This document shows positions 42,073 to 60,356 of a stretch of 64,000 nucleotides of DNA, in pieces. Source of the stretch: Candidatus Latescibacterota bacterium (GTDB taxonomy: Bacteria; Latescibacterota; CBDEFO01); NCBI GenBank assembly GCA_965248755.1, contig OZ252149.1, positions 2,976,001 through 3,040,000 on the forward strand, given 5' to 3'. The position numbers and the translations under genes are program-made. A model generated the notes under the pieces. The model saw nothing but the letters and a program-made list of their open reading frames with translations. It searched no databases and was not told the origin of the DNA. Each line of letters opens with the position of its first letter. Within the stretch, counting starts at the first letter, position 1.

Positions 42073-42258
42073 CTACTCAAAGGGGGCGTGTTTTGATCTC
42101 GTAAAGTAGTCGAGGACACTGCTTCTGGGCAGGAGGTACTGTTTTCCCGGCTTGTAGGCTGTGAGCAATCCGAAGTGTATTAGTTGACGCAAGTGTCTTT
42201 CTGAGCACCTCAGGAACTTAGCCGCCTCCTTGACTGTAAGCATGTCCTGGGTATCCAT
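42073..42258 (-). CDS. Excisionase-like HTH_17 DNA-binding protein
   Basis: MLTVKEAAKFLRCS...L..LI..G.L.AYK.G pattern. Confidence 0.85.
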   Translation of the reverse strand: MDTQDMLTVKEAAKFLRCSERHLRQLIHFGLLTAYKPGKQYLLPRSSVLDYFTRSKHAPFE

Positions 42259-42414
42259 CTTTTTCTCCTTTGACGAAAGCCTAATTACCGTTTTTGGTTT
42301 ACGGAGACTGAAGGATTGAACCTTTTGAAGGGTTATCTATAAACTTTCTGAAAAACAAAAATTATTTTTTATAACAAAGTAATAGTAAAAAGGTTCAAAA
42401 GGTTCAGTGCTTCA

Positions 42415-44754
42415 CTATTCCTCTCTATTCTTGATAAGTCCGATTCCCCGATAATAAACTCTACCGCCGGTTCCTCTATATCTGACGGACATCTCTCCCA
42501 TACGCCTGCCAAAGACCTTATTGCTCTTCGGCCTGAAACCATTTTCTTCACAGCCTTGTACGTATGTCCTATAGGCGTCTCCCGCCGGCACACTTGCTTC
42601 AGGGTCAACGTAAAAGTATTCCTCAAATATCTGAGCTATGTCGTCCTCCTCATCCTTATAGGCCTTCGTGGCCATCTTGACAGTATCTGGAGGCGCGAGG
42701 CCGTGTTCTTGGAAGTCGAGGCAGCCCTGGACGAGGCACGAGAGTATGCCCGATCCCTCTACTTTCAGTTTCTCCGCCAGGTTGGGGTCTCGCTTTCTTT
42801 CGTGGTCTCTTTGCGGGTCGTCCACAAACGAGAGATTGAAGGGTATCAGTCTGATTCTCTCCCAGAGGGCGTAGTCGTAGGCGTTTGCCTTCGGCTTGTG
42901 GTTGGTCTGGAGGAAGAGAGTAAAGGTGGGCCGAAACTCCACCTGGTGCTTCCCGTAGACCTCTCTTGCCACAAGGGAGTCTCCGCCTGATAGCCACTTG
43001 ACCTGACTGGTGTCCAGGTGGCGTCCCTCGTCGGATTCCGACGCCCAGACGAGGCGCTTGCCTCTGAGGGCCATCAGCTCCGATCTGGGAGAAGAGGCTG
43101 CGGGCCGAAAGCGGTTGTATAAGAGCATCTCCTTGGGGGCCTGCGAGACATAGGGACCCAGCACATCTGACAGCGCCTGAAACAAGGTCCCCTTGCCGTT
43201 CCTTCCCTGTCCCCAGAAGATGTAGAATTCGTGCTGTGTCGAAAGCCCTAACATAGAGTAGCCCAGCAGTCTCTTGACGTAGGAGATCAGCTCCTGATCC
43301 TCGTCGAAGATCTGAAAGAGGAACTCCTCCCATGCGGGACAAGGGGCGTCTGTCCCCTTCTTGGGACAGCCAATGTCTGTCCCCTTGTACTCCGTGGGGC
43401 AGACTGTCTTTATGTATTCCTCTTGTCTGCCTTCTCTCAATTCTCCCGTTCTGAGGTCTATAACGCCGTTGGGGCATGCCAGCAGGTAGGGGTTTCTGTC
43501 CCATTCGTGGCCCTCTATCGCCAGGGAATCTGCGCCGCTGGATGCGAGTTCAAGGACTTCGTCTGCCCGCCGCCTCGTGCTGAGCTGTCCGATTCTCTTT
43601 CTCAGCTGCTTCGTCTTCGTCTCGTTCTCCCCGATAGCTTCAATCGCTGTCTGGCTCTGTCTGTAGAGAGCGTCTTTATAGATCTGGATCACGCCCTCTA
43701 CGGAGGCCCTCGCCTCCCTGATCCTGTCGGGCGCCCAGAAGTGCCCCTTCCACTCGTACCATGTACCCTGGGAGCTGTCGTAGCAGAATCTGTCTCTGTA
43801 GAGCTTGACGAACAGTTTGGCGTCTCCGCGCTCGCCGTCGGAGAGAGCACAGAGGGTGTCCCCTGAAAGAGCGTAGGGGGTGTCACCTGAAAGAGCACAG
43901 AGGGTGTCCTCTGAAAGAGCACGAAGGGTGTCACTCTTTGGCTCTCCGTTGTAGGCGTTCGTGCCTACAGCGTAGGCATACGTGCCTGCCTTGTAGGCAC
44001 GCGTCCTGCCAATGGAGACCACGACCTGCTCCAGCTCCGATAGCTCAAGCGGAGGCCTGTTCTTCAGGTTCCATTCGACTAACTCTGCGCTGACCTCTGT
44101 CTTTGTCTTTCCCTGCCCGAAGAAGTGTCCGGCCAATCTTGCCGCGGAGTCGTTTCTGGAGCCTTCATCCACGCCATTTTCTAAAGACGGTAGAACAGAC
44201 ATTCTTGACTGTTTTTGTTCCCCGTCAGACAGGAACGTCTGACCTACTTTGCACGCATCTATTATCCATTTTGGACAGTCTGAGGGCATCTGGTTGTCGG
44301 GAGAGATGCGCCACTCGTATCGCCCTTTTTGATTCTCTGACGGAGGCACGACCACGTATCCGCCGTTTGCTCTCAGGTCTATGCCCTTCCGTCTGGCGAA
44401 ATTGCGGAGCAGTTTGGCTTCATCTCCGTCTTTCGGCATAGCGTAGAAGTAGTGGCGGCCGCCGGAGCCGGTCTTGCTGTACACAGTCGGCTCTCCGTCG
44501 TCCAGTTTCTCGAATGAGGTTATACCTTCTGATCCGTCCAGATCTACCACCACGACATTGGATATGTTGCCTGTCACGATCCCGATCTGTGCGTCTTTAT
44601 AGTCTCTCCACCACAACATAATCTGCTCCGGAGTCGCCCGCCCGCGCTGGTAGGCAAGCCACGAGATATAGGGCTTCTTGTCCGGCCGAACAGGGATCAC
44701 AGACCAGCCGATGGATTCATAGCCGAGCGCCGCAGATAATAGTTCGTCTGGCAT
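42415..44754 (-). CDS. Bifunctional prim-pol + PriCT + D5/P4-type SF3 helicase
   Basis: VVVDLD, TGSGGRH.FY, DLRA.GGYVV.PPS, GSRN, Walker A GQGRNGKGT, TNHKP. Confidence 0.92.
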   Translation of the reverse strand: MPDELLSAALGYESIGWSVIPVRPDKKPYISWLAYQRGRATPEQIMLWWRDYKDAQIGIVTGNISNVVVVDLDGSEGITSFEKLDDGEPTVYSKTGSGGRHYFYAMPKDGDEAKLLRNFARRKGIDLRANGGYVVVPPSENQKGRYEWRISPDNQMPSDCPKWIIDACKVGQTFLSDGEQKQSRMSVLPSLENGVDEGSRNDSAARLAGHFFGQGKTKTEVSAELVEWNLKNRPPLELSELEQVVVSIGRTRAYKAGTYAYAVGTNAYNGEPKSDTLRALSEDTLCALSGDTPYALSGDTLCALSDGERGDAKLFVKLYRDRFCYDSSQGTWYEWKGHFWAPDRIREARASVEGVIQIYKDALYRQSQTAIEAIGENETKTKQLRKRIGQLSTRRRADEVLELASSGADSLAIEGHEWDRNPYLLACPNGVIDLRTGELREGRQEEYIKTVCPTEYKGTDIGCPKKGTDAPCPAWEEFLFQIFDEDQELISYVKRLLGYSMLGLSTQHEFYIFWGQGRNGKGTLFQALSDVLGPYVSQAPKEMLLYNRFRPAASSPRSELMALRGKRLVWASESDEGRHLDTSQVKWLSGGDSLVAREVYGKHQVEFRPTFTLFLQTNHKPKANAYDYALWERIRLIPFNLSFVDDPQRDHERKRDPNLAEKLKVEGSGILSCLVQGCLDFQEHGLAPPDTVKMATKAYKDEEDDIAQIFEEYFYVDPEASVPAGDAYRTYVQGCEENGFRPKSNKVFGRRMGEMSVRYRGTGGRVYYRGIGLIKNREE
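43837..43932 (-). repeat. Four 24-bp tandem repeats inside the primase-helicase linker
   Basis: gacaccc.....gctct.tc.g.. repeated four times (DTLRALSE, DTLCALSG, DTPYALSG, DTLCALSD). Confidence 0.85.
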
Positions 44755-44889
44755 CTGGCTTCCTCTTGGCGTTGTAGGGGTATATGTGCCTTCGGCAAGA
44801 TGTGCCGAAGGCAAGATGTGCGTGTCCTCTACAAAGGTGCTGTCTACTATTTAAGTGCATATACATTAGTACACTATTGTAACTGACAT

Positions 44890-44940
44890 AATATAGGACA
44901 TGCAAAGGCCAAAGTCAAGCCGCAATCTTCCTATATGGAG
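44890..44940 (-). promoter_or_regulatory. Promoter TTGACT-N17-TATATT with upstream 21-bp motif, for the primase/xis operon
   Basis: Same boxes and motif as at 58868-58937. Confidence 0.75.
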
Positions 44941-45156
44941 TGAGAAAGGTTTCTGCGCTCGTACGTGCGCGTGCGTTTGCTCAGTTTGGGTCAGTCCCAG
45001 CGCCAGCGGAAAGGTACTTGAGTCGGGCGAGTGATCCCTGATAGAAGCAGTCGGGGACGCCCCTGCGTTGTGTCTGCTCTCTTGACTTTTCCCCACGAAT
45101 TCATCATACTACCAGGTGGAATCAGGAAGGGGCGCCTACTTTGTAGGAGTTGAACA

Positions 45157-45498
45157 ATGCGTGATATCATAACAATATCCGTCCTTTTTACTGTGCTGGG
45201 GATGTTGCATCCATCAGGCCCATGTGCGGAGGAGATAACCAAACTGGATCTCCTGCAGATGGAAAACAGGCTGAAAGAGTATATAGATCTGAGGATTTCT
45301 TCTGTACACATCAGGATAGATGAAATGGACAAAAGGATTGGCTTAGTTCAGTGGATGATAGCCTTTCTTTTTATCATAATAGTAGTTATTCAGGGGATAC
45401 CTCAGTTTGCAACTTTCTACAGAGAGCGACGAGACACTTTGGAATTCAGTCACCGTCTGGATCAGATGGAGCAGAAATTAAGCAGTCTGGCACAATAG
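45157..45498 (+). CDS. Hypothetical membrane protein (moron-like, opposite strand)
   Basis: RBS aggag, signal peptide, coil and one TM helix. Confidence 0.65.
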   Translation: MRDIITISVLFTVLGMLHPSGPCAEEITKLDLLQMENRLKEYIDLRISSVHIRIDEMDKRIGLVQWMIAFLFIIIVVIQGIPQFATFYRERRDTLEFSHRLDQMEQKLSSLAQ

Positions 45499-45609
45499 AA
45501 AGCAAAATTCCTGACTACCTCGTTTTGCCCATCGGGAGAGTGGTCCCCGATAGATTCAATCGGGGATCGCCCCTGCGTTGTGTCTGAAGTCCCAGCAACA
45601 TAGATAGTT

Positions 45610-45840
45610 TCATCTCAACCACCTCCCGAAGAAGGGCACAGTCGCCGAAAGCGCCTCTGCCAGTTCCTCTATGACTTCCTCCACTTCTTCCTGAGTCCAG
45701 CCGTCTTTTCTGTTGGCTCTTATGCTGGTTACCACATCCTCCCACTCCTTTGCAGCCTTCCTGGACCGCTTATACCAGACGGCGGCAAAGAGACCTATCC
45801 CTGTTACTGCGCCTCCGATTCCCATAATCCAGTCGAACAT
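45610..45840 (-). CDS. Small membrane protein of the lysis cassette (holin-like)
   Basis: N-terminal TM helix; one-base overlap with the upstream gene. Confidence 0.55.
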   Translation of the reverse strand: MFDWIMGIGGAVTGIGLFAAVWYKRSRKAAKEWEDVVTSIRANRKDGWTQEEVEEVIEELAEALSATVPFFGRWLR

Positions 45841-46082
45841 TATTTGTCACCTCCTAAAATGGATTTTAGCGCCATCATGACTCCTGCTGCTCCGCCTCCT
45901 GTTATTGACCCCCAGAGACCCGATTTGACCTTGAGTTGAGCGACATCCTCTTTCATCCCGATGATCATTCGATTATTCTCCTTCACATCACGGCTCACCG
46001 ATTCGATGTATTCGGTCAGATTGTCCAGCCGGGCTACAACTTCGCCCTCAAAGCGACCTCTTTGTCTGTCGTTATCATTCAC
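45840..46082 (-). CDS. Coiled-coil + C-terminal TM protein (holin-like)
   Basis: Directly after the amidase; hydrophobic C-terminus. Confidence 0.55.
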   Translation of the reverse strand: MNDNDRQRGRFEGEVVARLDNLTEYIESVSRDVKENNRMIIGMKEDVAQLKVKSGLWGSITGGGAAGVMMALKSILGGDK

Positions 46083-46576
46083 TTTAAGAACCTCCCAAGT
46101 ATCTCTCTAATCTGATCCATCTCTATATCGGGGCACGTCTTACTGGTCGCAAAGTTCGGCTTGACCCTTCCGATCTCGTAGTGTCCTATCACGTTCTGGG
46201 GGCGAACGCCGAACTGTCTCATCCATCTCTGGGTCTGCCGGAGCGCAGTGCAGATCTGGTTGAGTGTGTAGTCTCCGCCCCTTCCTATAAGGCAGATGGA
46301 TATGGACTCTCTATTCAGACCGTAGGCATGAGCCTGCAGCTCATCTGCCTCCAGCTCCGAATCTTGATCCAGCGGCCTGCCCGTCTCCAGCATACCATCC
46401 AGATGGGCTGCGTATCGCCCTTCTTTTCTGTCCTGTGAGGTCAGATAACCGTTCAGGATGACGGCTCCGTAACCTACCCTTGACCAGCCTCTTTCTCTGT
46501 GCCAGCCATCTATTGTGATCGCCGATCCGAACGTTGAATCGCTGGCATGCCAGACTATGTATTCAGCTCGTGACAC
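46079..46576 (-). CDS. N-acetylmuramoyl-L-alanine amidase (Amidase_2, T7 lysozyme-like endolysin)
   Basis: IVWH, WH..RGW..VGY, AHA.G.N..SI.ICL.G, IGH.E and KTCP motifs; GTG start after ggagg. Confidence 0.9.
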   Translation of the reverse strand: MSRAEYIVWHASDSTFGSAITIDGWHRERGWSRVGYGAVILNGYLTSQDRKEGRYAAHLDGMLETGRPLDQDSELEADELQAHAYGLNRESISICLIGRGGDYTLNQICTALRQTQRWMRQFGVRPQNVIGHYEIGRVKPNFATSKTCPDIEMDQIREILGRFLK

Positions 46577-46769
46577 CTTGATTCTCCTCCAATTGACAGG
46601 GTGAATGCCCTTCTGATATTGTCCCGCAGGATGTGCACTCCCATATGCCCTTTTGGGGATCATATATCATGCCCTCGTAGCAAAAGGAGCAGACCCGCCG
46701 AGGCGGATCGTATCTGATGACTTCCTGTTTCTCCTTGTCCCATTCGGCTGTGAGTTTGATTTCAGACAT
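46563..46769 (-). CDS. Small zinc-ribbon protein
   Basis: CSFC...WECTSCG. Confidence 0.55.
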   Translation of the reverse strand: MSEIKLTAEWDKEKQEVIRYDPPRRVCSFCYEGMIYDPQKGIWECTSCGTISEGHSPCQLEENQGVTS

Positions 46770-46861
46770 TGTTTTAGGTGTCCTCCAATTCCGTAGGGGC
46801 AGACCCGTGTGTCTGCCCTTCGTATGTCTGACTGGGCGAACACATGGGTTCGCCCCTACAT

Positions 46862-47476
46862 TCATACTGTCCCATCCGTTGTGTACTCTATCTCCAGATC
46901 CAATAATCTAAACAGCCCCGTGTGAGTGTCGTTCGCGCTTGCCCCCTGACGCTCCAGCTTGATGGCTGCAATATCTGTCTTTGCTGAGAGTGCAGCAGCC
47001 GGAACGTTAAAGGTGCTGTCCTGTTCATACACATTGGCGCTGTCGTCAGGATTCAAGGTGTTGGCAGATGATGTCGGCGTTCCGAGCGATGAGTTCAGGC
47101 TCGTAACAGTCCGGGAAAAGGACAGTTCCACATTCCCGCTATGGGCTGTGGTCATAACGTATGATAGGACTACGGCTATAGGCTTGGTTATGTCGCAGTC
47201 GTGCGGGCATTCAAACGATGCCCTGATGGTATTCGTGGCAGTCGTAGAGAAGTCCAGCCCGGGATAATCTCCTGTAAGGGCTTCGGCGGGCGGATTCGTC
47301 CCATCCAGCCTGATTGCTCCCCAGAGCGATGCCCGCACCAAATTGCCGGCCTTCAGATTATCAATGTCTATATTGCCGTTGAACTCGGTGTAGATGACGT
47401 CAAAGTTGCGGTTTATGGCGTATGCGCTATTTGCGCCCAAATCTCTTATCTGGTAAGGCTTGGCAATGAATCCCAT
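46862..47476 (-). CDS. Virion-associated hypothetical protein (tail-tip/needle position)
   Basis: Position after the nozzle; N-terminal AINRNF helix then beta-rich domain. Confidence 0.55.
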   Translation of the reverse strand: MGFIAKPYQIRDLGANSAYAINRNFDVIYTEFNGNIDIDNLKAGNLVRASLWGAIRLDGTNPPAEALTGDYPGLDFSTTATNTIRASFECPHDCDITKPIAVVLSYVMTTAHSGNVELSFSRTVTSLNSSLGTPTSSANTLNPDDSANVYEQDSTFNVPAAALSAKTDIAAIKLERQGASANDTHTGLFRLLDLEIEYTTDGTV

Positions 47477-47595
47477 TATCTTATCCTCTGAATCGTTTCG
47501 AGTGCGCCTGTGGGACTAGATCCACAACAGATGAATGTAGGGGCGAGGTCTACTCGCCCATGGGCTGGGAGAATGGATGCTCTGTCTATTGTCTG

Positions 47596-49086
47596 CTATC
47601 CTCTGAATCCCCTTTCGTTTGCCACAATGGACAGTCCGCCGAGCGAAAAGTCTCGCTGTGAGGACTCTGTGATCTTAAACTGGATGTATCTGCCTGCCGC
47701 ACCGTCCAGCGGCACTCTGTGGACGCTTCTGGAGTTTACGCCCGAAAGAGAGTAGCTGCCTGTGGCTGTCGCGGCAAAATCTACGAACCACTCCACGGTC
47801 AACGTCACTCCGCTTGCGTGGGCGTCCTCCACGAAGATGTAGGAATATCTGAAAAGCTTGGTCGTGTCTGCACGCTTCAAATCGAAACTTTTGGTCTTTA
47901 TCGTTACGCTTATGTCTGCCGAGGGCGGATCGTTGAGTCCCGTATCGGCCTGTGAGACGAAGCCTGTTCCATCTCCTGTCCATACTATCTGTGACTCTAT
48001 CGGGATGCCCGACAGAAGCGGATCTGCAACGTAGGCAAGTGCGTTCCCCGTGATCCCTGTGAACTTCGTCCAGGCATTGTTGAGATAGTCGTAGACGAAA
48101 ATGATCGTATTATTCGAGCCCCCCGACGGCGTCAGAGCGATCCAGTATTGATTTCTCTTTCGGTTGTGGCAAGATGCGGCCCTGGAAAGACGCGTCAGAT
48201 TAAGGGGGGTCGGACTGTCAGGGCCAGACGAGACGAGGTCCTCGATCTTTTCGGAGATGTAGTTCACTCGTGTGCCCCGAAAGGCGTAGACTCCCCTTTC
48301 GCCGTAGAAGTAGAGGCTGTCAGGGCCAGATGAATCGTCCGTGATGTTCTGTATGGAGTTTTGCGCAAGGCATCCCACGTCAGACGTGATCTGGGATACC
48401 TTGAAGATCGAGCCCGAATCACCCGACAGCGTATATATAGAGTTGCGCTTGAAGATGACCAACTGATCAAAGAGGACAGCAAGTCCGCTGATTTGATCTC
48501 CATCGTCCGGATTTATATCTATGTGGTCGCCGGATGTCCATACCTCAGGATTGTTCACCTTGGAGTAGTAGAGCCTCGATGGATCGGTAGAATTCCCCGC
48601 CAGGAAGAGATAGTTGTTGAATAGCTTCAAAAACTTTCCTTTTGGAGGAGACCCTCCCAGATCGGCGAAGGTGGTGCCGTCGTATTTCTTGACGTTATCC
48701 GTCCCGTTGGTCAGAATCAAAAGGTCGGTAAAGGTCTCAAAGCCCCACGGCAGGCCGTTGGTCAAGCCCGTAGCAATAGAATCCAACTCCAGAGTCGAAG
48801 TGTTGTACTTGTAGACCTGTGTCCCCGCCGTGACGATAATCGCCCTTGTCCCATCTTTCTTAACGTAGTCGTAGATTCCGGTTATAGAGGCAGAGATAGA
48901 GGTCAAGTTTCGCCTTTCGTGCCCCTTTCTCTTGACCCATGCGCCGTGTGTGTCCAGGTGGATATTGTCCAACTGGACAGCGTCTTTGTCTGGAAACGAC
49001 CCGACAGACGCCTTACTGTTTAGGCCTCCCGTGTTGTCAACATACGGGATCTCGATGTAGCTCTTTTTCCTTTTAGACCTTGTCAT
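47596..49086 (-). CDS. Tail nozzle / head-closure protein (P22 gp10 or T7 gp12-like beta-propeller)
   Basis: GGLN...KRKG N-terminus, RLYYS, LVIFK, VGC.A..SI, GRYIQFK. Confidence 0.75.
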   Translation of the reverse strand: MTRSKRKKSYIEIPYVDNTGGLNSKASVGSFPDKDAVQLDNIHLDTHGAWVKRKGHERRNLTSISASITGIYDYVKKDGTRAIIVTAGTQVYKYNTSTLELDSIATGLTNGLPWGFETFTDLLILTNGTDNVKKYDGTTFADLGGSPPKGKFLKLFNNYLFLAGNSTDPSRLYYSKVNNPEVWTSGDHIDINPDDGDQISGLAVLFDQLVIFKRNSIYTLSGDSGSIFKVSQITSDVGCLAQNSIQNITDDSSGPDSLYFYGERGVYAFRGTRVNYISEKIEDLVSSGPDSPTPLNLTRLSRAASCHNRKRNQYWIALTPSGGSNNTIIFVYDYLNNAWTKFTGITGNALAYVADPLLSGIPIESQIVWTGDGTGFVSQADTGLNDPPSADISVTIKTKSFDLKRADTTKLFRYSYIFVEDAHASGVTLTVEWFVDFAATATGSYSLSGVNSRSVHRVPLDGAAGRYIQFKITESSQRDFSLGGLSIVANERGFRG

Positions 49087-49236
49087 TATTCTGCGTCCTC
49101 TCAAGTGGCAGGCAGTAAACAGGGGGGTTCACCCCGAAGCAATCTCGTTTTACAGTAGACAGATCGTAGGGGCGAGGTTCACTCGCCCAGGGGGCAGGGT
49201 TCGCCCTTGCCTTTCCCTGTCTACTGTCTACTGTCT

Positions 49237-49341
49237 TACGACCCGACAGATGCCTTACTGTTTAGGCCTCCCGTGTTGTCAACATACGGGACCTCGATGT
49301 AGCTCTTTTTCCTTTTAGACGTTGTCATTATTCTACGTCCT
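49237..49341 (-). repeat. Duplicate of the nozzle 5' end (part of a tandem duplication with the spacer)
   Basis: Copy of about 48997-49101; 49166-49239 also matches 49617-49705. Confidence 0.8.
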
Positions 49342-49700
49342 CTATATGCAAGACCGCTATTGTAGGGGCAGCCCGGGTGTCTGCCCTGGGGACAGGGTTC
49401 GCCTTTGCGTTGCCCTGCCCCAATCGAACCCCCGTTGGTCATTGCGAGCGGAGCGAAGCAATCTCGTATGTGCTTCCTTTGTGAAAGAACCGAGATTGCT
49501 TCGGGGTGAACGCCTCTTGAGCAAGAGGAATGAACGCCCGATACAATCATTCGGGGGCAGGCCCCCTCGCAATGACTTAATGAAAGCAGTGTCATCGCCA
49601 GCATACGCAGAACCTTGTAGGGGCGAGGTTTACTCGCCCTGGGGGCAGGGTTCGCCCTTGCCTTTCCCTGTCTATTGTCTACTGTCTACTGTCTACTGTC

Positions 49701-50663
49701 TTACGTTCTGTCAAATAGAATGTTAGAGAATCCCCTCAGATGTCGTCCCTTCCTTCTCAGACCTACAGGCTTTACTCTGATGCCTCCATCGTAGTCTCTG
49801 GCGTCCTCCCAGACGAGGGTATTCAATTGGCTTTCGTACAGACTTTCTGCGTCTTCGGCGTAAGGGTCATCCAGCCATCTGTTGGCCGCTGCCAGCCCTT
49901 TAAGATAAAGCAGCCTGTGGTACTTGGCGGGCAGACCTGATGTATCGCTTGTCGAAGAAAGCTCCGAAAGGGTCTTGTAGTAGCGGTATGAAATCTGTAT
50001 TACCTCTCTGGGGTACGGATAGAACAGAGCCTGAAGCGCCCCATTTGAGTCTCTCACTTCACAGTAGATGCTCGGAATCCCAGACGTATTGGCATCCAGA
50101 TCGGGGACGGTCTGCTCCAGGTCCCTTATGTCCATCTTCTTTAAAGCAGGGAAGCTGTGTCCACCCAGAATGAGACTTGCCCCCGGCAGCTTCGTGTGAA
50201 CCATCTCCATTATCTCGTCCACATCAGAGGCAAGGCTGTACTCCCTCTGGAAGATGGAATAGCTCTTACCCGCTGCAGTCGTGCCGATATAGTTTGTGGT
50301 AAGCTCAAGTGATGTATCGTTCGTTATGGAACTTATGACGTAGGTACTATCGTCGCCATCTACTCTGAACCGGTCGCCTGCGTTTACGTTTGCCGAAAAG
50401 GCCGTCCCTGCGCCCGTTACTGTTGCATCACCGTTCGTCACGCTCACAGTACCGGCACTGTAGACGGCCTTCGTCTGAAAGACACCTGTCTTCTGCTGCC
50501 AGCGGTATCGCCTTCTGGAAAGCACATCCTCCTGCGCCCGATTGATCTGATCTATTATGACCCTGGTAAGCCCCAAGGGACTCCCTGGAATAGAGCCTAA
50601 AGTCGGCTCGTGGACCTCTGTGAGCACCTCATTTACCAGCGCTAGCAAAGTTCTGGATGGCAT
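49701..50663 (-). CDS. Head-tail adaptor (tail tubular A-like) with inserted beta domain
   Basis: TLL.LVNEVL, INRAQ..V...RYRW, YSL.SD, FYPYP, LP.KYH motifs. Confidence 0.75.
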   Translation of the reverse strand: MPSRTLLALVNEVLTEVHEPTLGSIPGSPLGLTRVIIDQINRAQEDVLSRRRYRWQQKTGVFQTKAVYSAGTVSVTNGDATVTGAGTAFSANVNAGDRFRVDGDDSTYVISSITNDTSLELTTNYIGTTAAGKSYSIFQREYSLASDVDEIMEMVHTKLPGASLILGGHSFPALKKMDIRDLEQTVPDLDANTSGIPSIYCEVRDSNGALQALFYPYPREVIQISYRYYKTLSELSSTSDTSGLPAKYHRLLYLKGLAAANRWLDDPYAEDAESLYESQLNTLVWEDARDYDGGIRVKPVGLRRKGRHLRGFSNILFDRT

Positions 50664-50789: not shown

Positions 50790-51059
50790 CTACGCATAAT
50801 GCACAAAGACAGACGGGCTCGTGCCCGTCAAAGTCGCATAGACACCGATGTCAATTCTGATTCCCTCTGGGAAAGAGACGTTCACCGTAGTGTTCGCGGA
50901 TGCCTTAAGCGTCACTATCGGATTACCGCTGCCTGCTGTATTGTCATATAGAGCCGCCGAAGCAGCATCAGCGCCAGCAGTCAGCGTGGCCCCTTGTACA
51001 TTGGCAAGGCCTGTAGTAACCTGCCCTGAGGTCGTTCTTTCTTTAGTAAATCCTGCCAT
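50790..51059 (-). CDS. Small virion protein
   Basis: Beta-rich 89 aa; P.GIR...GVY pattern seen in podovirus head regions. Confidence 0.6.
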   Translation of the reverse strand: MAGFTKERTTSGQVTTGLANVQGATLTAGADAASAALYDNTAGSGNPIVTLKASANTTVNVSFPEGIRIDIGVYATLTGTSPSVFVHYA

Positions 51060-51260: not shown

Positions 51261-52220
51261 CTATGCTGCAGTAGGATCGATTTTAGCGCCGCCTGCCGCG
51301 TCTCCGACGTAGTTTTCGACTACCTGCTCAGGGTGCCTGTCCTGAGTGACTGCAGTCGCCGAGCAGTTGGCAAAGTAGTTTCTGGCTATGACTCCCAATG
51401 GGGAGTTTGCCTCTGCCGCCTCAAAGGTGATTCCCACTTCATCACCGGCGTCAGTTGCGCCCAGGAAGAAGTTATCTACTATGAACGCACCGTATCTGGT
51501 CGTCGCATTTGTCCTGGTGGGCACAGTTATCGCAGTATCCCCGTCGTCCATCATAAAGAAACAGTCCTTTATGATCGGCCTTGTCGAATCCCAGACGATG
51601 TCAGCGCCGTCAAATCCGGGAGCAAAAAAGCACCGCTCGATTATACACTCGCCGGCGTCGTTTGTACCATCTCCCAGACGTATTCCGTTGCCTCCTGCCT
51701 GTTCGTTCCATCCTGCAATAAACATGTCGTGAAGATACGTATAGTTGGTCGCTGCTGTGTCTGCGATATCAATGATACCGTGGAGAGCTTGAGCGCTTAC
51801 ACCGATCCTGAAGAACCCTATTTCTACATTATCAGCCTCTACTGCCAATAGTTCATTGACATTACCGCTTGGCCCGTTCAACGATGGACAGCCGTACCCG
51901 TAGGGCGCGGGCGGATAGCCCAGAAGCCGGATATCGTCCTTATCGATAGTAAGAACACCACCGGGCGTATGCGTCCCCCGCAAAAGAACGATCGTATCCC
52001 CTCTTCCTGAAACACACGAATCGAGGGCTTTCTGGACGGTGGCCAAGGGAGTTAAAGGGCTTGCCCCATCGTTATTGTCAGAAGGACCTTTGCCCTCCGG
52101 ATGGGCTACATGCCCTGTGGTAGGCGCTACAAAGAATGTCTTACCTGTAAGAGAGGAATAGTAACTATTCCCCCCGATGATAGCGTCAACGCTTAATACA
52201 CCGAAATTTGTCAATCCCAT
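51261..52220 (-). CDS. Pectin-lyase-like beta-helix virion protein
   Basis: FFVAP...SD.NDG.SP..PLATVQKALD......GDTIVL..G cap motif. Confidence 0.75.
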   Translation of the reverse strand: MGLTNFGVLSVDAIIGGNSYYSSLTGKTFFVAPTTGHVAHPEGKGPSDNNDGASPLTPLATVQKALDSCVSGRGDTIVLLRGTHTPGGVLTIDKDDIRLLGYPPAPYGYGCPSLNGPSGNVNELLAVEADNVEIGFFRIGVSAQALHGIIDIADTAATNYTYLHDMFIAGWNEQAGGNGIRLGDGTNDAGECIIERCFFAPGFDGADIVWDSTRPIIKDCFFMMDDGDTAITVPTRTNATTRYGAFIVDNFFLGATDAGDEVGITFEAAEANSPLGVIARNYFANCSATAVTQDRHPEQVVENYVGDAAGGAKIDPTAA

Positions 52221-52637
52221 CAATTCTCCTCCTTATGCTTAAGTAAGTAGTATACACAATGTAGGGGCGAGGTCATCTCGCCCGCAGTAGGCAGGGAGGG
52301 GATGAGGTGCTTCCTGCCCCCGACTTGATCGGGGGTTACCCCGCCTAACGTGTGTTTCCGTAGGGTCGAGAGCACTTCGTGCCTTTCTGTCTCTGCTCCC
52401 CAGCAAGGCTCCGTGCCCCCATCCTTGGAGATTGCTTCGGCCCGATTGAGCCATTCGGGGAGAGGCCCGATAGATGCAATCGGGGGCGCTCGCAATGACG
52501 TTACTTAGTTTGGGTCATTGCGAGGAGATTCTTCCCTGTTGATCAAGAGGGGCTTCACCCCGAAGCAATCTCGGTTACAATAGACACGATGTAGGGGCGA
52601 GGTCCACTCGCCCCCTTGCCTTACCTGTCTACTGTTT

Positions 52638-53540
52638 TTATGCTCCTGGAGATCCGAAGACGCCCCTGAAGTCGCTCCATCCCACGCCAAAGCGCATAGT
52701 GCCCTTTATCTTCAGATCGCCTGTATCGAAGTCCTCACCCGGCGTCACGGTAAACCTCTTCCTCCAGAAGAAATTCAGTTCGTGATCGTCCTTTTCGCCT
52801 ACTAAGAACCAGGCGTCAGGGTCGGTCAGATAGTGCCACACAAATGGCCGTAAGCTTAACATCTGAAAGGCGTTTTCAGCGTTATTTGCCGTATCGGGAC
52901 GGCCCGAAGACTTCAAAAGCTCGAAGGTGTCCCACTCTGACTCGTTAGGCACGACTAAAAGTCTCGGCTTTACGGCCATCTTCAGCCCTGCGTCATCTGT
53001 AAAGTCCTCAAAGTCGTTTATCGCCTGACGAAGCGACGTGACGGAAAGGTCGGCGTCGGTTGAGAGCTTGTTCTGCTCGGTGCCGCCTGCCTTTACAAGC
53101 GGGTGGTCTGTCGCAAATAGTGGCTTAGCGTCAGCGCCGGGGTAGCTTGTGTTGAAGCCGTTATTGAAGACATCGGCGGTGACGATCTCGACAGTCTGAG
53201 CCGCAGACCTTCCTAATGCCCTTGCCATCCGCCTCATAGGGCTGTAGAAGTCGTCCTCTCTCATCTCCTCTGATACCCTGAAACCGAGTCCGTAGGTAAC
53301 ATGAGTGTATCGCTTTTTGAACCCCTGAACAGGGTCATCGTAGCTGATCGCCTCACCTTCGTCCTTTGTGGAGAAGAGCCCCAATCCGCTGACCGAAGCG
53401 TCCTCCTCGTACTGACTGTCCGAGGAGTGGACGTTGAATATGAAAGAGTATTCCTCTGGATAGGACTTATACTTATTGAAGATGACCTTCCTCAATCCAG
53501 CGGCTAACAGAAACTCGAAGTTTGGCGAAATTGATGCCAT
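52638..53540 (-). CDS. Major capsid protein (HK97 fold, Mu gpT-like/podovirus type)
   Basis: GL...K.EG..I.YD, YGLGF.VSEE..EDD, AD..PLF.TDHP, YLTD.DAWF and G.SD.RG.FGSPGA motifs. Confidence 0.9.
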   Translation of the reverse strand: MASISPNFEFLLAAGLRKVIFNKYKSYPEEYSFIFNVHSSDSQYEEDASVSGLGLFSTKDEGEAISYDDPVQGFKKRYTHVTYGLGFRVSEEMREDDFYSPMRRMARALGRSAAQTVEIVTADVFNNGFNTSYPGADAKPLFATDHPLVKAGGTEQNKLSTDADLSVTSLRQAINDFEDFTDDAGLKMAVKPRLLVVPNESEWDTFELLKSSGRPDTANNAENAFQMLSLRPFVWHYLTDPDAWFLVGEKDDHELNFFWRKRFTVTPGEDFDTGDLKIKGTMRFGVGWSDFRGVFGSPGA

Positions 53541-53704
53541 CTATTTCCTCCTTTTCTAAACGTGCGTTCTCGTAGGGGCACGCCCGATAGAGTCATTCGG
53601 GGACAGACCCCCGATGGGATCGTTCGAGGGCAGGCCCGTGTGTCTGCCCTAAACAATTGAGAGACTTTGATGCGGTAGGTCAGACATTCCTGTCTGACAC
53701 TAAA

Positions 53705-54211
53705 TTACACTCCAGTTGTCTGCTTGAGCTGATGCTCGTTGATCTGTACAGCGATCCTGGCCCACGATCCCCATGCGTTTCCGACGACCTTATGGAGACC
53801 TAAAACCCTCAATTGAGCAGAGCCAGTCGTAACCCCGGATATATCCAGTTCGTGCCCGGACAGTTTGCTGTCCACATCTCCCGTTCCGGCGACTACGTCT
53901 GCGTTGTTTCCCACGTGAGTCTGCGCAGATGCAACAGCAGCTCCGTCGTCCTGGACAGAGAAGACAGTGTCGGGGTCATCATAGACCCAGACCGAGTCTG
54001 TCTTAGAAGCGGTGCTGAAGTTTCCCGCTACACCCAAAAGGGCATTGCCGGCCGCAGCCGCAGCCACGTAGCCGTCCGCCTCCAGCTTTACGGCATCTCC
54101 GATGTAAATTGCTGACGCCGAATTATCCTTTGTATACTTGACGAGCCTCGGCGGTCCGCCCTGCTTGGTCTGGATCGGACTTAACCCTCTCGGACTATCT
54201 ACATTTGCCAT
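53705..54211 (-). CDS. Capsid cement/decoration protein
   Basis: MANVD.P.GL.P, IYIGD.V, VYDDP...F..Q, INEH; immediately upstream of the MCP. Confidence 0.75.
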   Translation of the reverse strand: MANVDSPRGLSPIQTKQGGPPRLVKYTKDNSASAIYIGDAVKLEADGYVAAAAAGNALLGVAGNFSTASKTDSVWVYDDPDTVFSVQDDGAAVASAQTHVGNNADVVAGTGDVDSKLSGHELDISGVTTGSAQLRVLGLHKVVGNAWGSWARIAVQINEHQLKQTTGV

Positions 54212-54281
54212 CTTTACCTCCTTTTCTTGCTCTAACGAGCGTTTTTGTACGGGCGTGGCAATCTCGCCCCTACATCCTTAT

Positions 54282-54731
54282 TCAGCGTTGGATACTTAAT
54301 CTTCCGAAGACGAACTCTTCGGCTTCCTTTTTACTCATTCCACCGCGTGTCAGGGCGTGCTGAGCCCTGTCTATAGCCTCGTCAACATCGTCCACAAGCT
54401 TTCTGACTTGAGATGAACTTTCCTCCTGGAAGTGCCTGTTCCTTTTTTCCGCCAACTCCTCGGGCATCTCACAGAGGGTCATCTCCCTGCGTTGAATACC
54501 GGAGGTCAACTGCGATCCACTCTGGGGATCGTGTTGTTTCTTCTCCTTTGCCTGGACGGGATTCCAACCGTCGTACTTTTTAGTCTCAAGGTTCTCAGTT
54601 ACGACCCATCTTAAGCGTTTGCCCTCCTTTTTCTTCTGCTCCTTAAGATCAGAATCGAGGGCCAGAAGATCAGGTCTTGTCCACTCGGCTACCACCTCTA
54701 CCCTATCTTTTCGTTCCTTTCCTGTTCCCAT
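54282..54731 (-). CDS. Conserved podovirus head-region protein
   Basis: LRWV...GW.PV...LCEMPEE....RN pattern. Confidence 0.65.
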   Translation of the reverse strand: MGTGKERKDRVEVVAEWTRPDLLALDSDLKEQKKKEGKRLRWVVTENLETKKYDGWNPVQAKEKKQHDPQSGSQLTSGIQRREMTLCEMPEELAEKRNRHFQEESSSQVRKLVDDVDEAIDRAQHALTRGGMSKKEAEEFVFGRLSIQR

Positions 54732-55393
54732 AGTGCTCTCTGCTCCTTTAAGATATTTATAGTTGACTGTTCGTACGACTGCTTGATATGCAAGAGAGAA
54801 GCCCGGCAGATATGATCGCACGGGACATCCAGATTTACGGCTACACTAAACCCACAAGCCTTCGCCTTTATGCAGAAATAGAGATCTGATCCCACCTTGA
54901 CTGTCCCATCTGCGTTTAGCCACAGGTCGAACGGTATCTTCATTTCGGCATGCTCCAGGACCCTTCTGTGTATCATAATACATCCTGCACCGACGGCATC
55001 TACTTCACAAATCCCGCCAAAGACTTCCGGATTGACGATAGTAAAGGCTTCATCTTCGGAGTTGTAGTAGTATATACAGGGGCCTGGAACGTCTAATGGC
55101 TTATAAGTTGATAAGCACAGCCCGCCGCAGATGTCGTGTCCAGACGTGGCTAATTTGAGAGGGTCTGTAGTCGGAACGACATCATCATCGATCATCAAGA
55201 GCCATTCTTTATCCGCCTTAAGGAAATCGGCAACTATGGCGTTTCTTACCACGTGCGATCCTTGATGTCCGTCCTTGAAGCTTATATATAGATCGGGATA
55301 AGCCTTTCGGAGCGTCAAAATATGCCTGACAGTCCCCCGGTGCAGCCATCCTGTAGTCGGAATTGCAAGGAACACGTCTTTGGGATTTACCAT
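54698..55393 (-). CDS. GT-A fold glycosyltransferase
   Basis: FLAIPT, RNAIV..FL, LLMIDDD, GAGC.MI.R.V, GSD..FC motifs. Confidence 0.8.
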   Translation of the reverse strand: MVNPKDVFLAIPTTGWLHRGTVRHILTLRKAYPDLYISFKDGHQGSHVVRNAIVADFLKADKEWLLMIDDDVVPTTDPLKLATSGHDICGGLCLSTYKPLDVPGPCIYYYNSEDEAFTIVNPEVFGGICEVDAVGAGCIMIHRRVLEHAEMKIPFDLWLNADGTVKVGSDLYFCIKAKACGFSVAVNLDVPCDHICRASLLHIKQSYEQSTINILKEQRALWEQERNEKIG

Positions 55394-55663
55394 TATCGTT
55401 TCCTATCTACTGTCTATTGAGCGAACACGTGAGCCTGTCCCCGAAATGAATGTCATTCCCGTGGAAACGGGAATCCAGGGATGCCATGAAACCCTACTAC
55501 CTGTCCCCGAAAGGTTGAAGCGGGGGCCTGCCCTCGAACGATTCTATCGGTGATTCACCCCGAAGCAATCTCGCTAAACGTTCGTTTTTCGTAGGGGCAG
55601 ACCCGTGTGTCTGCCCTTGCCTTCTTTGGGTCATTGCGAGCGAAGCGAAGCAATCTCATCTGT

Positions 55664-56410
55664 CTACTGTCTACTGCTTTTAAATCCTTCTCTTCTCATC
55701 TCGGACGCACCGTCTACCAAATCCTTTTCGGAGAGCCCTAACTTTCTTGCTATCGACCTCCCGATAGCTCCCACACTTTCTTTTTCTTCTTTCGGTGAAG
55801 AGGGGCTCTCGACAAAGGGCATAGAGTATTCAATGGACGTCTCACTTTCCGCCATCGCATCATCCACTGTCTGCTCTTCCCTTGCTTCTTTTTCCTTTCC
55901 CTGTCTCCCCCGATTGAATCTATCGGGGCCTACTGTTTGCTGTCTACTTGCCTTGGACGCCCTGGCTAACCGATAGGCAATATCCAGAGCAGATGTCAGA
56001 TCGATCTGGCTTAAGCGTTGCAAAGCAGGCGTCCTTTGAGTCACCTCTATCATCTGTGGTATCATCTCGTTGAAGTCCTCGTAGCGTTGAGAAGGAGATT
56101 CGAGCTTTACGGACTTCGCCTTTTGGCTTTCTTCTTTGAAGAGTTCTTTACCCTTTCCCTGAGTGAGTTGATCCCCGATTGAATCTATCGGAGACCCTTC
56201 AGCCCGACGTGCGTCATCAGGTTCGGCGGAATCTTCCAGAATATTCGTATCGTGTAAGTACGATTCAACGACCTCTTGGTGATCCTCCCGGGACAGCCGA
56301 GGATCGTCGCCTGTATCCTCTTGTTCATCACGGACTTGCACCTGATCTTTTATGTCATCATCCTTGGTCTGCAAAGGCTCAGTCTGTAGAGATTCAGTCT
56401 GTAGAGACAT
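55664..56410 (-). CDS. Putative capsid scaffolding protein
   Basis: Acidic, helical, between portal and capsid genes; C-terminal IARKLGLSE. Confidence 0.65.
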   Translation of the reverse strand: MSLQTESLQTEPLQTKDDDIKDQVQVRDEQEDTGDDPRLSREDHQEVVESYLHDTNILEDSAEPDDARRAEGSPIDSIGDQLTQGKGKELFKEESQKAKSVKLESPSQRYEDFNEMIPQMIEVTQRTPALQRLSQIDLTSALDIAYRLARASKASRQQTVGPDRFNRGRQGKEKEAREEQTVDDAMAESETSIEYSMPFVESPSSPKEEKESVGAIGRSIARKLGLSEKDLVDGASEMRREGFKSSRQ

Positions 56411-56424
56411 CGCATCCTCCTTGT

Positions 56425-56694
56425 TTATCTTTTCCTTAGCGTAATTGAGATAGTTATCGTGTTCTCGTCCTCATTCGACTCTATTTTCATAGCGCTGCAC
56501 ACCGTTTGGAGGGCCACAGAGACTGCGCCCTCGATAATCTCCTCGAACACGCCTACAGCCTTCATGCTCATCAAAAGATCACATTTGATATACGCTTCTA
56601 ATTTGTCCGACACGGTCTTTTTGATCGAAGGGATCAAAAGGTCGGCAAGCTTAGCCTGCTTGGTAGCCTTCTGGGTCTCAGTCTGTTGAGACAT
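56425..56694 (-). CDS. Phage hypothetical protein
   Basis: RBS ggagg; co-oriented in the operon. Confidence 0.6.
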   Translation of the reverse strand: MSQQTETQKATKQAKLADLLIPSIKKTVSDKLEAYIKCDLLMSMKAVGVFEEIIEGAVSVALQTVCSAMKIESNEDENTITISITLRKR

Positions 56695-56941
56695 CGTTGA
56701 GTTTTCCCTCCTTTATCACCTGTTTGGGGATACTCATAATCTCCAAAGCCGCGTGGAGTTTCCCCTTATGATAGAGCACCTCTTCCCACGAATGGCTACT
56801 TATGACCTTGTTCGTCTCCATTTCCCTGTAAGCCTCAATCCTTTTGGATAGTACCTCCCATCCGGGGTGGCGCATAAGTTCCTCTATGATCTCAGTGTCC
56901 TCTATACGCTTGGTCTTTTCCTTACTCGATGTTTTCATCAT
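56678..56941 (-). CDS. Portal-adjacent small protein (Bbp19-like)
   Basis: L..HPGW.......KG pattern typical downstream of podovirus portals. Confidence 0.6.
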   Translation of the reverse strand: MMKTSSKEKTKRIEDTEIIEELMRHPGWEVLSKRIEAYREMETNKVISSHSWEEVLYHKGKLHAALEIMSIPKQVIKEGKLNDVSTD

Positions 56942-58787
56942 CAGATCCCTGTAGAGACTCAAGATAAGACGTCAAGCCAAGCGTTGACGCTTTTCCGTCA
57001 CGTTGTGCGGTTTTTCTATTGCGACTCCGTTTACGACCATTTTGTGTCGAGCGTTGATCTCGAAGCGTCTCCTTGGGTCTTTGACCTATAATCCCCGCGA
57101 TATCCTTTTCGTCGTGTGCCAAAAGGAGTCTCCTTGTGACCTCAAAGACCCTGGACGGATCGCCCTTAATCAGAGAATTATTGATCAGGCGGTCGTACAG
57201 AAAGACAGAGGTCTGCCTTTGGGCCTGTTTATTGATACTTTGAGTATTGCCAGAGAGTATATAGTCGAATTTGCCCTGGATAGATTCCCTTGGGATCTCC
57301 TCAAATACATCCTTCCCGTCTTTTCCTGTAACACGAATTACAGTCTCTGGAGCTATGTACTGCTGATTGATCTGCACGACCTGCTCTAAGAACTCCCTGA
57401 ATGACTCCTGTATTCCCTTGATGATTAGATCTATTCTGGCATTTGCCTCCTGGATAACCGCCATTGTCCCTGTAGCCGTCCTTGGGGCATTAGGTGTGTC
57501 GGGAGACCTTCCCACAAGAAAGTCAGAAATGCCGAGGATACGCTCGATGTAAGCCAACACCAGTTGCTCTTCGTTAAAGTAGAAGGACGTCACATCGGGG
57601 TGCTTCGGGAAGAGAATCCCGTTTACGTCAGACACAGCGTATCCCCTTCCCGGTTCGAGGTTAAGTGTCTCGGGGAGTCCGGTCGAAGTCGGCTCGTAGA
57701 AGAAATAGGGGATATTCGTAACCGTCCCGGAATCTATCCTTTGATTGTGTAGGGCATTTATCTCCTCCTGGAGGTCCCTTATCCTTTCTGGTATCCCGAT
57801 GGAGTAGAACCTTGCGGGGACCCGGACAAAGTGGAAGTCTATAAATGGCCGTTTCCCGTGTTGAAAGAGATCGTCCAGAAAGACAGCCCTTAATAGCCTT
57901 CTTGCCTCCTTTGCCACCGTAAAGACACATTCCTCCTCGAAGCCGTCTTCATCAACATCGTATCTTCCGTACCACTCCAATATCTCTATTTCATTTGCCT
58001 CATCCGATCCAGTGGTTGTAACCCCTTCCAGATCGTCCTCTACCACTCTGATAGCATCTTGAGGATCAGACCTGCTATTGTCGTCTGCAAAGACCTTGAG
58101 ATCCTCATCCACATTTTGGTATATACCCTCCACTGCTCTCTTTTTGAGGTCATCGAATCTGACCCAGCACCTGTGGATAAGGTGATCGCAGCTTTGCAGA
58201 TCTTTAGCATTAGACGGGATTATAAGATCGGCTGTATCCACCACCTCGAACCTCGGCCCCTCATATACCACGATCTCTTTTTTATTTCCTTTCGCTGTGA
58301 CTGTAGGGGCAGCAGGCCCATGTGTTTGCCCTGATCCATCTTCCCTCACAGTCCGCGTCACCCTCTCCCACGTAAGCTTACCACAAGCAGTGCCGTCAAT
58401 TAGGGTCAGCGTAACGATGTCGTAGAAAGTCCAGTAGACCTTCATGTGATTGTTCAATTCCCAGTGCAGAAACTGCTCAAGGATCCTTGCCCGTTCGACA
58501 TCGCCCTTTTCTATCGCCCTGACATTAGCAACAGGCGAGGAGTCAAAAAGAGCCTTCATCAACTTGGGTGTAAGCGTATCCACAACCGTACCCGTCACAG
58601 GGACGTGGAGATTGGAGGCGTTCTCCCATGGCCACGACTTCGGCTCGGTTACGCCCCTGTACTGTTTTCTGTAATCCGCCCTCTTGTGGAGCCATTCGTC
58701 CCTGTTTTGCGTATCGCGGTTGTAGTCGTCCAGGACCCTTTGGACGATCGCCTCTTCCATAGTCTCCGTCAGTTTGATTTGTCCCAT
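56922..58787 (-). CDS. Portal protein (P22-like)
   Basis: PW..ASNL..P, GTA..K..W, RFY.IG...I.DLQ..IN..HNQ.ID, TATG motifs. Confidence 0.88.
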   Translation of the reverse strand: MGQIKLTETMEEAIVQRVLDDYNRDTQNRDEWLHKRADYRKQYRGVTEPKSWPWENASNLHVPVTGTVVDTLTPKLMKALFDSSPVANVRAIEKGDVERARILEQFLHWELNNHMKVYWTFYDIVTLTLIDGTACGKLTWERVTRTVREDGSGQTHGPAAPTVTAKGNKKEIVVYEGPRFEVVDTADLIIPSNAKDLQSCDHLIHRCWVRFDDLKKRAVEGIYQNVDEDLKVFADDNSRSDPQDAIRVVEDDLEGVTTTGSDEANEIEILEWYGRYDVDEDGFEEECVFTVAKEARRLLRAVFLDDLFQHGKRPFIDFHFVRVPARFYSIGIPERIRDLQEEINALHNQRIDSGTVTNIPYFFYEPTSTGLPETLNLEPGRGYAVSDVNGILFPKHPDVTSFYFNEEQLVLAYIERILGISDFLVGRSPDTPNAPRTATGTMAVIQEANARIDLIIKGIQESFREFLEQVVQINQQYIAPETVIRVTGKDGKDVFEEIPRESIQGKFDYILSGNTQSINKQAQRQTSVFLYDRLINNSLIKGDPSRVFEVTRRLLLAHDEKDIAGIIGQRPKETLRDQRSTQNGRKRSRNRKTAQRDGKASTLGLTSYLESLQGSDDENIE

Positions 58788-58867
58788 AGCCTTTCCCTGT
58801 GAAGATGATTTAGAGGGTTTTCTATCTACTACTCGCTCGTATACTATTCATTTGTTCATATAGAGTA

Positions 58868-58937
58868 AATATAAGACAAACTCCGCATTCAGTCAAACCG
58901 CAGGATGCGTTATCTTCCGCAATCTTCCTATTTGGAG
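58868..58937 (-). promoter_or_regulatory. Promoter TTGACT-N17-TATATT with upstream 21-bp motif, for the portal/structural operon
   Basis: Shared with 44890-44940. Confidence 0.75.
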
Positions 58938-60321: not shown

Positions 60322-60356
60322 AGTTTTGTAGAGCAAAGGGACTGGATAGCTGGGTT

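Follow-up and report, generated by a model that had tools for sequence, protein, structure and literature searches.

The 64 kb window analysed here, genome positions 2976001–3040000 of contig OZ252149.1 of a Candidatus Latescibacterota bacterium (assembly GCA_965248755.1), carries part of a podovirus-derived element that spans 27.6 kb and extends past the window end. Its genes fall into three units: the terminase operon, one operon that runs from the portal to the lysis genes, and a primase–origin unit. That this module has been kept by selection after its immobilization is far better supported than any single function. Tentatively, and at slightly less than an even chance, it is interpreted as a host-kept, immobilized podovirus gene set making DNA-filled, non-propagating particles that move host DNA between cells; a function of the gene transfer agent (GTA) or lateral-transducing type is plausible.

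The genome (G000) is a single contig of 4.54 Mb. Comparisons were made with a congeneric sister species (G001) and with 239 related loci (phage contigs and bins, labelled L), many of which are too short to show the ejection region. Positions refer to the window unless given as genome positions, and individual features are collected in Table 1.

Terminase operon and its separation from the portal

A sequence-only reading of the window had described the capsid module as lacking a terminase. A whole-genome search with PF03237 led to an intact terL, next to an intact terS, 3.6–5.5 kb beyond the window end; both genes are on the same strand as the portal, 8.8 kb separating the end of terL from the start of the portal, and a terminase-free capsid was rejected on these grounds. 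Walker A, Walker B and nuclease acidic motifs are all present in TerL; an intact large and small subunit, as expected of a temperate podovirus, are thus encoded. The suggestion that packaging functions lie elsewhere was correct in that they are separate from the portal, but they are only 8.8 kb away and in the same element. Because terL ends at most 1.3 kb from the portal in all 14 related loci in which both genes were matched, the split arrangement is regarded as derived.

In both species an opposite-strand lipoprotein gene and variable cargo lie between terL and the portal, and in the sister species too the lipoprotein gene stands head to head with the portal. The cargo is made up largely of plus-strand genes for exported proteins and, inside the window, comprises a TPR lipoprotein (59350–60321, present in both species), a FlgD-Ig protein, a CBM9/TPR protein and an M15 peptidase; past the window end it continues with a HEAT protein, an insertion sequence that we take to be of the IS3 family and a thioredoxin. 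A metallo-hydrolase, a dehydrogenase, relA and the transfer-messenger RNA (tmRNA) gene, the last 5.3 kb away, follow on the far side of terS.

An assembly join at about 58.9 kb, which the sequence-only reading had named as a result that would refute it, was excluded: a read contig, probably from the source sample itself, spans 55905–60500 without difference, and the sister species shows the identical junction. Depth in the read contigs is similar in module and flank and is here no measure of copy number. Twelve sequencing-run holders across five studies were found, with no RNA run among those listed.

A related head/neck set is scattered among host-type genes in a Vulcanimicrobiota bin (G041; loci L256/L257, G041:C3 2812–36347), where terL is in two pieces, encoded on the other strand and 5 kb upstream of the portal, and at L259 a portal-to-capsid block is set between host genes; both are possibly parallel cases. 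G041 and a further genome, G042, first looked terminase-free, PF03237 having missed the split terL of G041, and such searches can therefore miss genes.

Inheritance and selection

At the same site the sister species carries terS–terL, a different cargo and the portal-to-xis block; the flank beyond xis has been rearranged by insertion sequences. Between the two species the synonymous divergence (dS) of the module is 0.098 and the ratio of nonsynonymous to synonymous divergence (dN/dS) is 0.22, calculated over 19 packaging, virion and lysis open reading frames (ORFs) and including the repeat-rich 100-residue ORF at 46563–46865. The corresponding values are 0.098 and 0.21 for 11 flanking host genes and 0.093 and 0.26 for 132 other host genes (single-copy orthologues from 400 kb of one G001 contig). 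Since the dS of the module equals that of the host, descent rather than two insertions is indicated. Codon use in the module is host-like. In G000 no nonsense change was observed, against 18–22 expected under neutrality over half of the species distance. Both species lack the same phage genes, and selection therefore acted after the loss of phage autonomy.

Orthology in the sister species, host-like dS and codon use, and a dN/dS well removed from the value near 1 that the sequence-only reading had set against itself, uphold its view of long residence under selection. An unchanged site, flanking core genes, host-like divergence and a dN/dS well below 1 are the marks of a domesticated orthologous defective prophage.

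Integrase, attachment sites and ejection genes

The absence of an integrase was borne out: all 15 tyrosine and two serine recombinase matches in G000 lie more than 300 kb from the element, and no att-like repeat longer than 13 nt flanks it (the longest flank repeat is 13 nt). The integrase and att pair of a temperate prophage are thus lacking. The tmRNA gene was considered as an integration site and rejected, as no duplicated tRNA or tmRNA 3′ end was found near the element. No repressor was recognized, in agreement with the sequence-only reading, which had also allowed that a close relative with both terminase and integrase would reduce the case to a simple deletion; the sister species has the terminase, but no integrase was seen in the stretches read.

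Ejection-type genes, which we take to correspond to P22 gp7, gp16 and gp20, are found close to the capsid gene in 12 of the 239 related loci (seven training, five new), and where loci are long enough they often follow the nozzle gene (phrog_598, phrog_2534). Neither family is present in G000 or G001 according to searches in which the controls worked; a search with phrog_5880 gave no match, but its control was not working. When all ORFs of the 239 loci were compared with G000, no virion-like gene was found elsewhere in the genome, nor were unlinked ejection genes detected by similarity, profile or composition. The internal virion proteins of an inducible podovirus, already noted as lacking in the sequence-only reading, are thus absent within the limits of these searches, which divergent forms could escape. 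In the best nozzle relative the genes downstream of the nozzle have no family match themselves. Both species join the fibre gene directly to the lysis genes, and the loss of ejection genes therefore predates the selection described above.

PBSX-like particles package DNA and do not inject it. The host could likewise retain these genes to make a particle without any role in gene delivery, such as a decoy, an adhesive or an antagonistic body, or so that a part of the population lyses and sheds extracellular DNA. This would suit the missing ejection genes, the miniature fibre of glycan-binding type and the selection seen on capsid, portal, terminase and lysis genes alike, and the same question is left open for the FpGTA particles of Faecalibacterium prausnitzii in the accessible part of PMC12946183. 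A need for lysis alone, however, would not account for the dN/dS values of 0.06–0.17 seen for capsid and terminase, and no toxin or killing gene was recognized in the operon; we regard this explanation as rather unlikely.

Promoter block and repeats

The portal does stand behind its own promoter, as had been proposed, and TTGACT-N17-TATATT starts terS, the portal and the primase. In each case a shared direct-repeat motif stands upstream of it. With 42 occurrences in the genome, TTGACT-N17-TATATT itself is apparently the general host consensus. A profile built from five copies of the longer block finds six in G000 (next match E about 1): three belong to the element, a fourth precedes a broken primase paralogue, and the other two, which are weaker, precede host genes. 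In G001 the block is retained at terS and portal (four matches versus none in the control) and lost at the primase. As a sequence feature, the shared block fits co-regulation of the split units.

The block was also tried as a guide to unlinked virion loci and was discarded, as its other copies lead only to the primase copy and the two host genes. SOS control was rejected in turn: a candidate box precedes lexA (a GAAC-N4-GTTC palindrome at genome position 3706757, not found before recA), the promoters of the module are without one, and a regulon could not be reconstructed. A broken replication gene, presumably lambda-O-like, is present at L287 (G001:C3 381330) and at genome position 2070957 of G000; the block precedes it in G001 and is deleted there in G000.

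The spacers had been described as repeat-filled, and host palindromic repeats, presumably of the repetitive extragenic palindromic (REP) type, were indeed found in 11 of 12 module spacers versus 358 of 1637 co-directional gaps genome-wide. The module holds 31 motif matches, compared with a median of two and a maximum of 19 per 17 kb bin; the motifs were chosen from the module spacers themselves, which inflates both contrasts. The repeats are confined to spacers and break no module gene.

Primase–origin–xis unit

The primase is intact in both species, with a dS of 0.30 and a swapped C-terminus; the C-terminal domain of the G001 protein differs and is well formed, and the adjoining G001 origin has the same layout with other repeat sequences. 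We take the origin to be of SaPI/P4 type. At least seven primase-end/origin/xis copies occur in G000 (genome positions 1892978, 3084897, 4187586, 58446, 285651 and 112216, and 42309–42414 in the window). Each has inverted repeats around 50–64 nt of A+T-rich DNA, the repeat sequence differing from copy to copy; in most of them the primase has been lost, and no integrase adjoins them in the stretches read. The HTH_17 (helix-turn-helix) xis gene has further copies or fragments at eight other places in the genome.

A PICI- or P4-like satellite carries its own integrase together with a primase and origin in a small excisable island; here primase and origin are present, and integrase and att sites are absent. 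Dependence on a helper would mean either that ejection proteins and regulators come from an infecting phage or that capsid-less primase–origin–xis elements use the module for packaging, and that the module stays intact for this reason. The promoter block shared by the primase family with terS and portal, the joint exchange of origin and C-terminus between the two species, a hint of recombination with relatives that are still active, and an integrase–primase island at 3.934–3.940 Mb of G000 would fit such an arrangement. A satellite must excise, however, and neither an integrase nor an att pair flanks the module; every other origin–xis copy in G000 is without an intact primase, and for a chromosomal module to be under selection as strong as that on host genes, the host must gain from it. 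We hold helper dependence to be improbable.

The island just mentioned (genome positions 3934247–3939723) is capsid-less and encodes a tyrosine integrase and an intact 853-residue primase-type protein that is 46% like the N-terminal half of the window primase. Three to four 24-nt tandem repeats lie in frame in the linker of the window primase (43841–43934), an array that is shorter in G001. Beyond the unit a second, broken xis copy (38735–38955) lies beside an IS3-type element (39061–40250) that recurs in the cargo, and a Schlafen/AlbA_2 gene with a RecG-C ATPase-like part and lower G+C content faces xis (40500–41960); it is possibly defence cargo.

Proposed function

Under the interpretation preferred here, the terS–terL, portal–lysis and primase units would be switched on together through the shared promoter block, and the region would be replicated in situ by the primase-helicase, beginning at its origin, comparable to run-off replication in the Bartonella agent BaGTA. 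TerS, with its helix-turn-helix retained, would initiate packaging by the headful mode on chromosomal DNA, and the first DNA to enter the heads would be that of the element and of the host region past the primase; such packaging would resemble lateral transduction as a packaging mode and would not be random. Lysis of the producing cell would fall to the amidase and the holin-like proteins, and the miniature fibre would bind a surface glycan. Without envelope-spanning ejection proteins the DNA would reach the periplasm only, and a ComEC/DprA route would be needed in the recipient; both genes are intact in G000. A more specific version, in which a podovirus of an uncultured phylum is turning into a GTA through loss of ejection genes and integrase, splitting of operons under copies of one promoter, in-place amplification, pac-directed packaging and competence-based entry, is put forward as a doubtful possibility.

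Several observations weigh against particle-borne transfer of host DNA. The sister capsid gene is cut at 258 residues (stop at codon 259) in all four contigs on record, a result that rests on assembled proteins and on records that may not be independent samples; further breaks in portal, scaffold, adaptor and fibre each occur in single sister records. Breaks in G001 are also found in 16 of the 132 host controls (some of them presumably wrong starts), so that the proportion of broken module genes is unremarkable in itself; what stands out is that the sister records share a stop at a capsid residue that is almost invariant. Read-through of the sister stops as amber/pyrrolysine codons was rejected, since no PylS exceeded the cut-off. 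The module is decaying in the sister species and is therefore dispensable. In a survey of 168 genomes of the phylum, many of them incomplete, the capsid profile gave two strong matches (one genus), two weak unrelated matches and none in the remaining 164; beside established GTAs the module is young and dispensable. ComEC and DprA discriminate little, being found in 10 and 11 of 14 control genomes, respectively. Ejection proteins evolve rapidly, and a gene can escape family searches, as happened with the G041 terL. The predicted helix-turn-helix of TerS points to site-specific initiation; because TerS keeps this DNA-binding-type domain and the element measures 27.6 kb against 40–57 kb for related phage contigs, it could package itself. 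The primase–origin–xis unit may be a neighbouring mobile element that is not part of the system, and the promoter block, which also precedes the second primase copy, two host genes and a phage-type replication gene in G001, may be a mobile promoter spread by primase elements and not a regulon. Finally, purifying selection is common on defective prophages (Bobay 2014, as cited in the accessible part of PMC5381585).

The module could accordingly be a benefit-free cryptic prophage in slow decay, in which selection merely purges missense changes that are toxic on leaky expression while deletion lags behind. The narrow range, the decay in the sister species and the many other mobile remnants in the genome agree with this, as does amino-acid polymorphism among sister strains, which is 2.6-fold higher in the module (15 of 2647 residues) than in five host genes (3 of 1391), a difference that is not significant (p = 0.14). 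Stops and frameshifts would be tolerated in such a relic, yet G000 has none where about 20 are expected; repeats fall in spacers and not in genes, and promoters are retained on both halves of the split. Slow decay without benefit is judged quite unlikely.

Comparison with known systems

Six criteria for GTA viriforms are given in the accessible part of PMC9662315. Two apply here: the particle proteins are Caudoviricete-derived (capsid, portal and terminase families), and the genes are fully endogenized, in split operons with neither an att pair nor any integrase closer than 300 kb. For vertical inheritance, orthology with host-like dS extends over two species, too few for a tree, in one of which the module is decaying. 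The remaining three are packaging of largely random host DNA, where the TerS helix-turn-helix points instead to site-specific initiation; a head too small for its own genes, to be set beside the 27.6 kb of the element and the 40–57 kb of related phage contigs; and delivery of DNA to other cells, for which ejection families were not found and comEC and dprA are present. The element, known here from its genes, is not classed among the GTAs. Of the other categories, neither inducible prophage nor satellite applies, and domesticated orthologous prophage does.

The nearest published systems are FpGTA, by description and not by sequence comparison, and then domesticated defective prophages; statements on these systems are confined to the accessible parts of the sources. 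FpGTA likewise has podovirus-type terS–terL–portal–scaffold–capsid genes that are fixed in the chromosome, divided among at least two operons and accompanied by fibre and lysis genes, and DNA delivery is not shown for its particles either; lateral transduction is discussed in the same source (PMC12946183). In contrast, its TerS is without an obvious DNA-binding domain whereas the helix-turn-helix is kept here, its particles of about 40 nm with 8.4–8.9 kb of DNA have been seen whereas genes alone are known here, and its operon I is present in 12 of 12 genomes examined whereas the present module is found in two species, one decaying (PMC12946183). In the present element, unlike FpGTA, a primase–origin unit adjoins the particle genes.

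BaGTA pairs a run-off origin with particle genes, and its uptake needs comEC, dprA and comM (PMC5496983). Likened by description and not by sequence, the two systems share particle and lysis genes beside a phage-derived replication unit and a strong sigma-70-type promoter (PMC5496983; bioRxiv 10.1101/2024.11.20.624540), and uptake through competence genes would account for the missing ejection proteins. BaGTA differs in being genus-wide, experimentally shown and under Q-like antiterminator control (same sources); no such antiterminator was recognized in this element. The defective prophages of Bobay et al. (2014; via PMC5381585) are also integrase-less, with the same flanking core genes, a host-like rate and purifying selection on structural genes. 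Here, unlike there, the genes for packaging, head, short tail and lysis are all retained, with the ejection genes cleanly missing, and the portal operon has its own promoter after its split from the terminase genes.

Uncultured podoviruses of 40–57 kb (PF25209 capsid, SU10-type portal and adaptor) share the order terL–portal–scaffold–glycosyltransferase–149-residue ORF–cement–capsid; the best relative, L092, matches at 65% in the capsid, 55% in the glycosyltransferase and 38% in the portal. In these phages, however, terL lies directly beside the portal, and loci of sufficient length often have ejection-type genes after the nozzle. Nothing closer was found in the literature on such elements in this phylum or on ejection-less podovirus agents, most subscription papers lying outside the search.

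Virion and lysis genes

The roughly 15 co-oriented intact ORFs of the sequence-only reading are 16 open minus-strand virion and lysis ORFs, from the portal to the holin-like pair; a plus-strand gene then breaks the common orientation, and beyond it the primase-helicase and the excisionase-like gene follow. Its labels for portal, major capsid protein, adaptor, nozzle, amidase, glycosyltransferase, Prim-Pol/D5 and HTH_17 proteins were confirmed by family, whereas scaffold, cement, beta-helix and holin are without a passing family match and rest on position and phage-contig homologues. The tail-fibre gene had been overlooked.

Table 1
Features of the element and its surroundings (window positions; seven-digit numbers are genome positions).
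Feature	Position	Strand	Evidence and remarks
Excisionase-like HTH_17 gene (xis)	42073–42258	−	TIGR01764; no integrase after it
Origin-like site	42309–42414		21-nt inverted repeats flanking 64 nt of 80% A+T
Prim-Pol/PriCT/D5 primase-helicase, P4 family, 779 residues	42415–44754	−	PF09250, PF08706, TIGR01613 over cut-off
Shortened promoter-block copy before primase	44886–44945	−	Absent before G001 primase
113-residue gene separating lysis from primase	45157–45498	+	Diverged G001 orthologue
Two small membrane proteins, holin-like, 80 and 76 residues	45610–46082	−	XhlA E 0.005, below cut-off; retained in G001
Amidase endolysin	46079–46663	−	PF01510 E 2e-9, phrog_822; zinc-ligand motifs present
Miniature tail fibre, 204 residues	46862–47476	−	Short helical anchor and beta-sandwich tip, CBM type, no shaft
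Nozzle/head closure, 496 residues	47596–49086	−	phrog_3287 E 4e-45, phrog_578 E 1e-6; dN/dS 0.17
Dead duplicate of first 35 nozzle codons, then repeats	49236–49343	−	96% over 106 nt; single copy in G001
Adaptor, 320 residues, inserted fibre-type domain	49701–50663	−	PF24175 E 4.5e-13; tail-fibre PHROGs on residues 65–150
89-residue virion-region ORF	50790–51059	−	phrog_28102 E 0.0016; homologues in 3/239 loci
319-residue protein, probably head or tail appendage	51261–52220	−	N-terminal match to L177 phage ORF; dN/dS 0.17
Major capsid protein, 300 residues, Mu gpT/PF25209 type	52638–53540	−	Family matches; dN/dS 0.06
Probable capsid cement/decoration protein, 168 residues	53705–54211	−	phrog_37556 (unknown function); homologues in 101/239 loci; dN/dS 0.13
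Conserved head-region ORF, 149 residues from ATG	54282–54731	−	Homologues in 31/239 loci
Glycosyltransferase-like protein, 231 residues, phage-borne	54698–55393	−	phrog_34859 E 5.5e-11; L092 gene at equivalent place
Probable scaffold, 248 residues	55664–56410	−	Positional label; 28% to L092 ORF at equivalent place; frameshifted in G001
Two small ORFs, 94 and 89 residues	56425–56962	−	Both retained in G001; no passing family match
Portal, 621 residues	56922–58787	−	PF23899 E 2e-48, phrog_1216; dN/dS 0.17; G001 stop at codon 446
Portal promoter block	58863–58944	−	Upstream direct-repeat motif and TTGACT-N17-TATATT (58896–58868)
Host-type cargo between portal and terminase operon	59350–64000	+	Runs on past window end
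terL, 520 residues	3043601–3045163	−	Past window end; PF03237 E 2e-16, phrog_2 E 2.6e-37; dN/dS 0.14
terS, 135 residues, N-terminal helix-turn-helix	3045129–3045536	−	phrog_24579 E 1.7e-4, PF13022 E 4.6e-7; overlaps terL
Promoter-block copy before terS	3045579–3045660	−	83% over 78 nt to portal copy; retained in G001

The duplication at the nozzle start spared one full nozzle copy. The nozzle gave no PDB sequence match, and scans of viral and metagenome contigs with it gave one distant locus; for the 319-residue protein neither a family nor a PDB sequence match was found. The domain of the miniature fibre recurs in 107 homologues, and many of the 22 scanned have tail-fibre matches. Its structural model (predicted local distance difference test, pLDDT, 87) has CBM61, CBM6 and Eph ligand-binding domains as best Foldseek matches, with modest template-modelling scores; a model made without an alignment was unusable (pLDDT 36). 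The 100-residue ORF at 46563–46865 was rejected as a gene: it is mostly repeat sequence, has a dN/dS of 0.89 and is broken in G001.

Significance

If particles are made, the element would be a young intermediate between prophage and GTA, still with a DNA-binding TerS and a replication origin; if none are made, it would be another domesticated prophage remnant, now shown to be dispensable. Were the preferred interpretation true, long reads from viromes would be predicted to show host DNA of one size with coverage beginning at terS and declining past the primase. On the more specific and doubtful reading of a podovirus turning into a GTA, a species that keeps the module and a sister that is losing it would form a natural pair for studying the origin of GTAs, and the loss of ejection proteins would be the recurrent step in the conversion of podoviruses into gene transfer agents.

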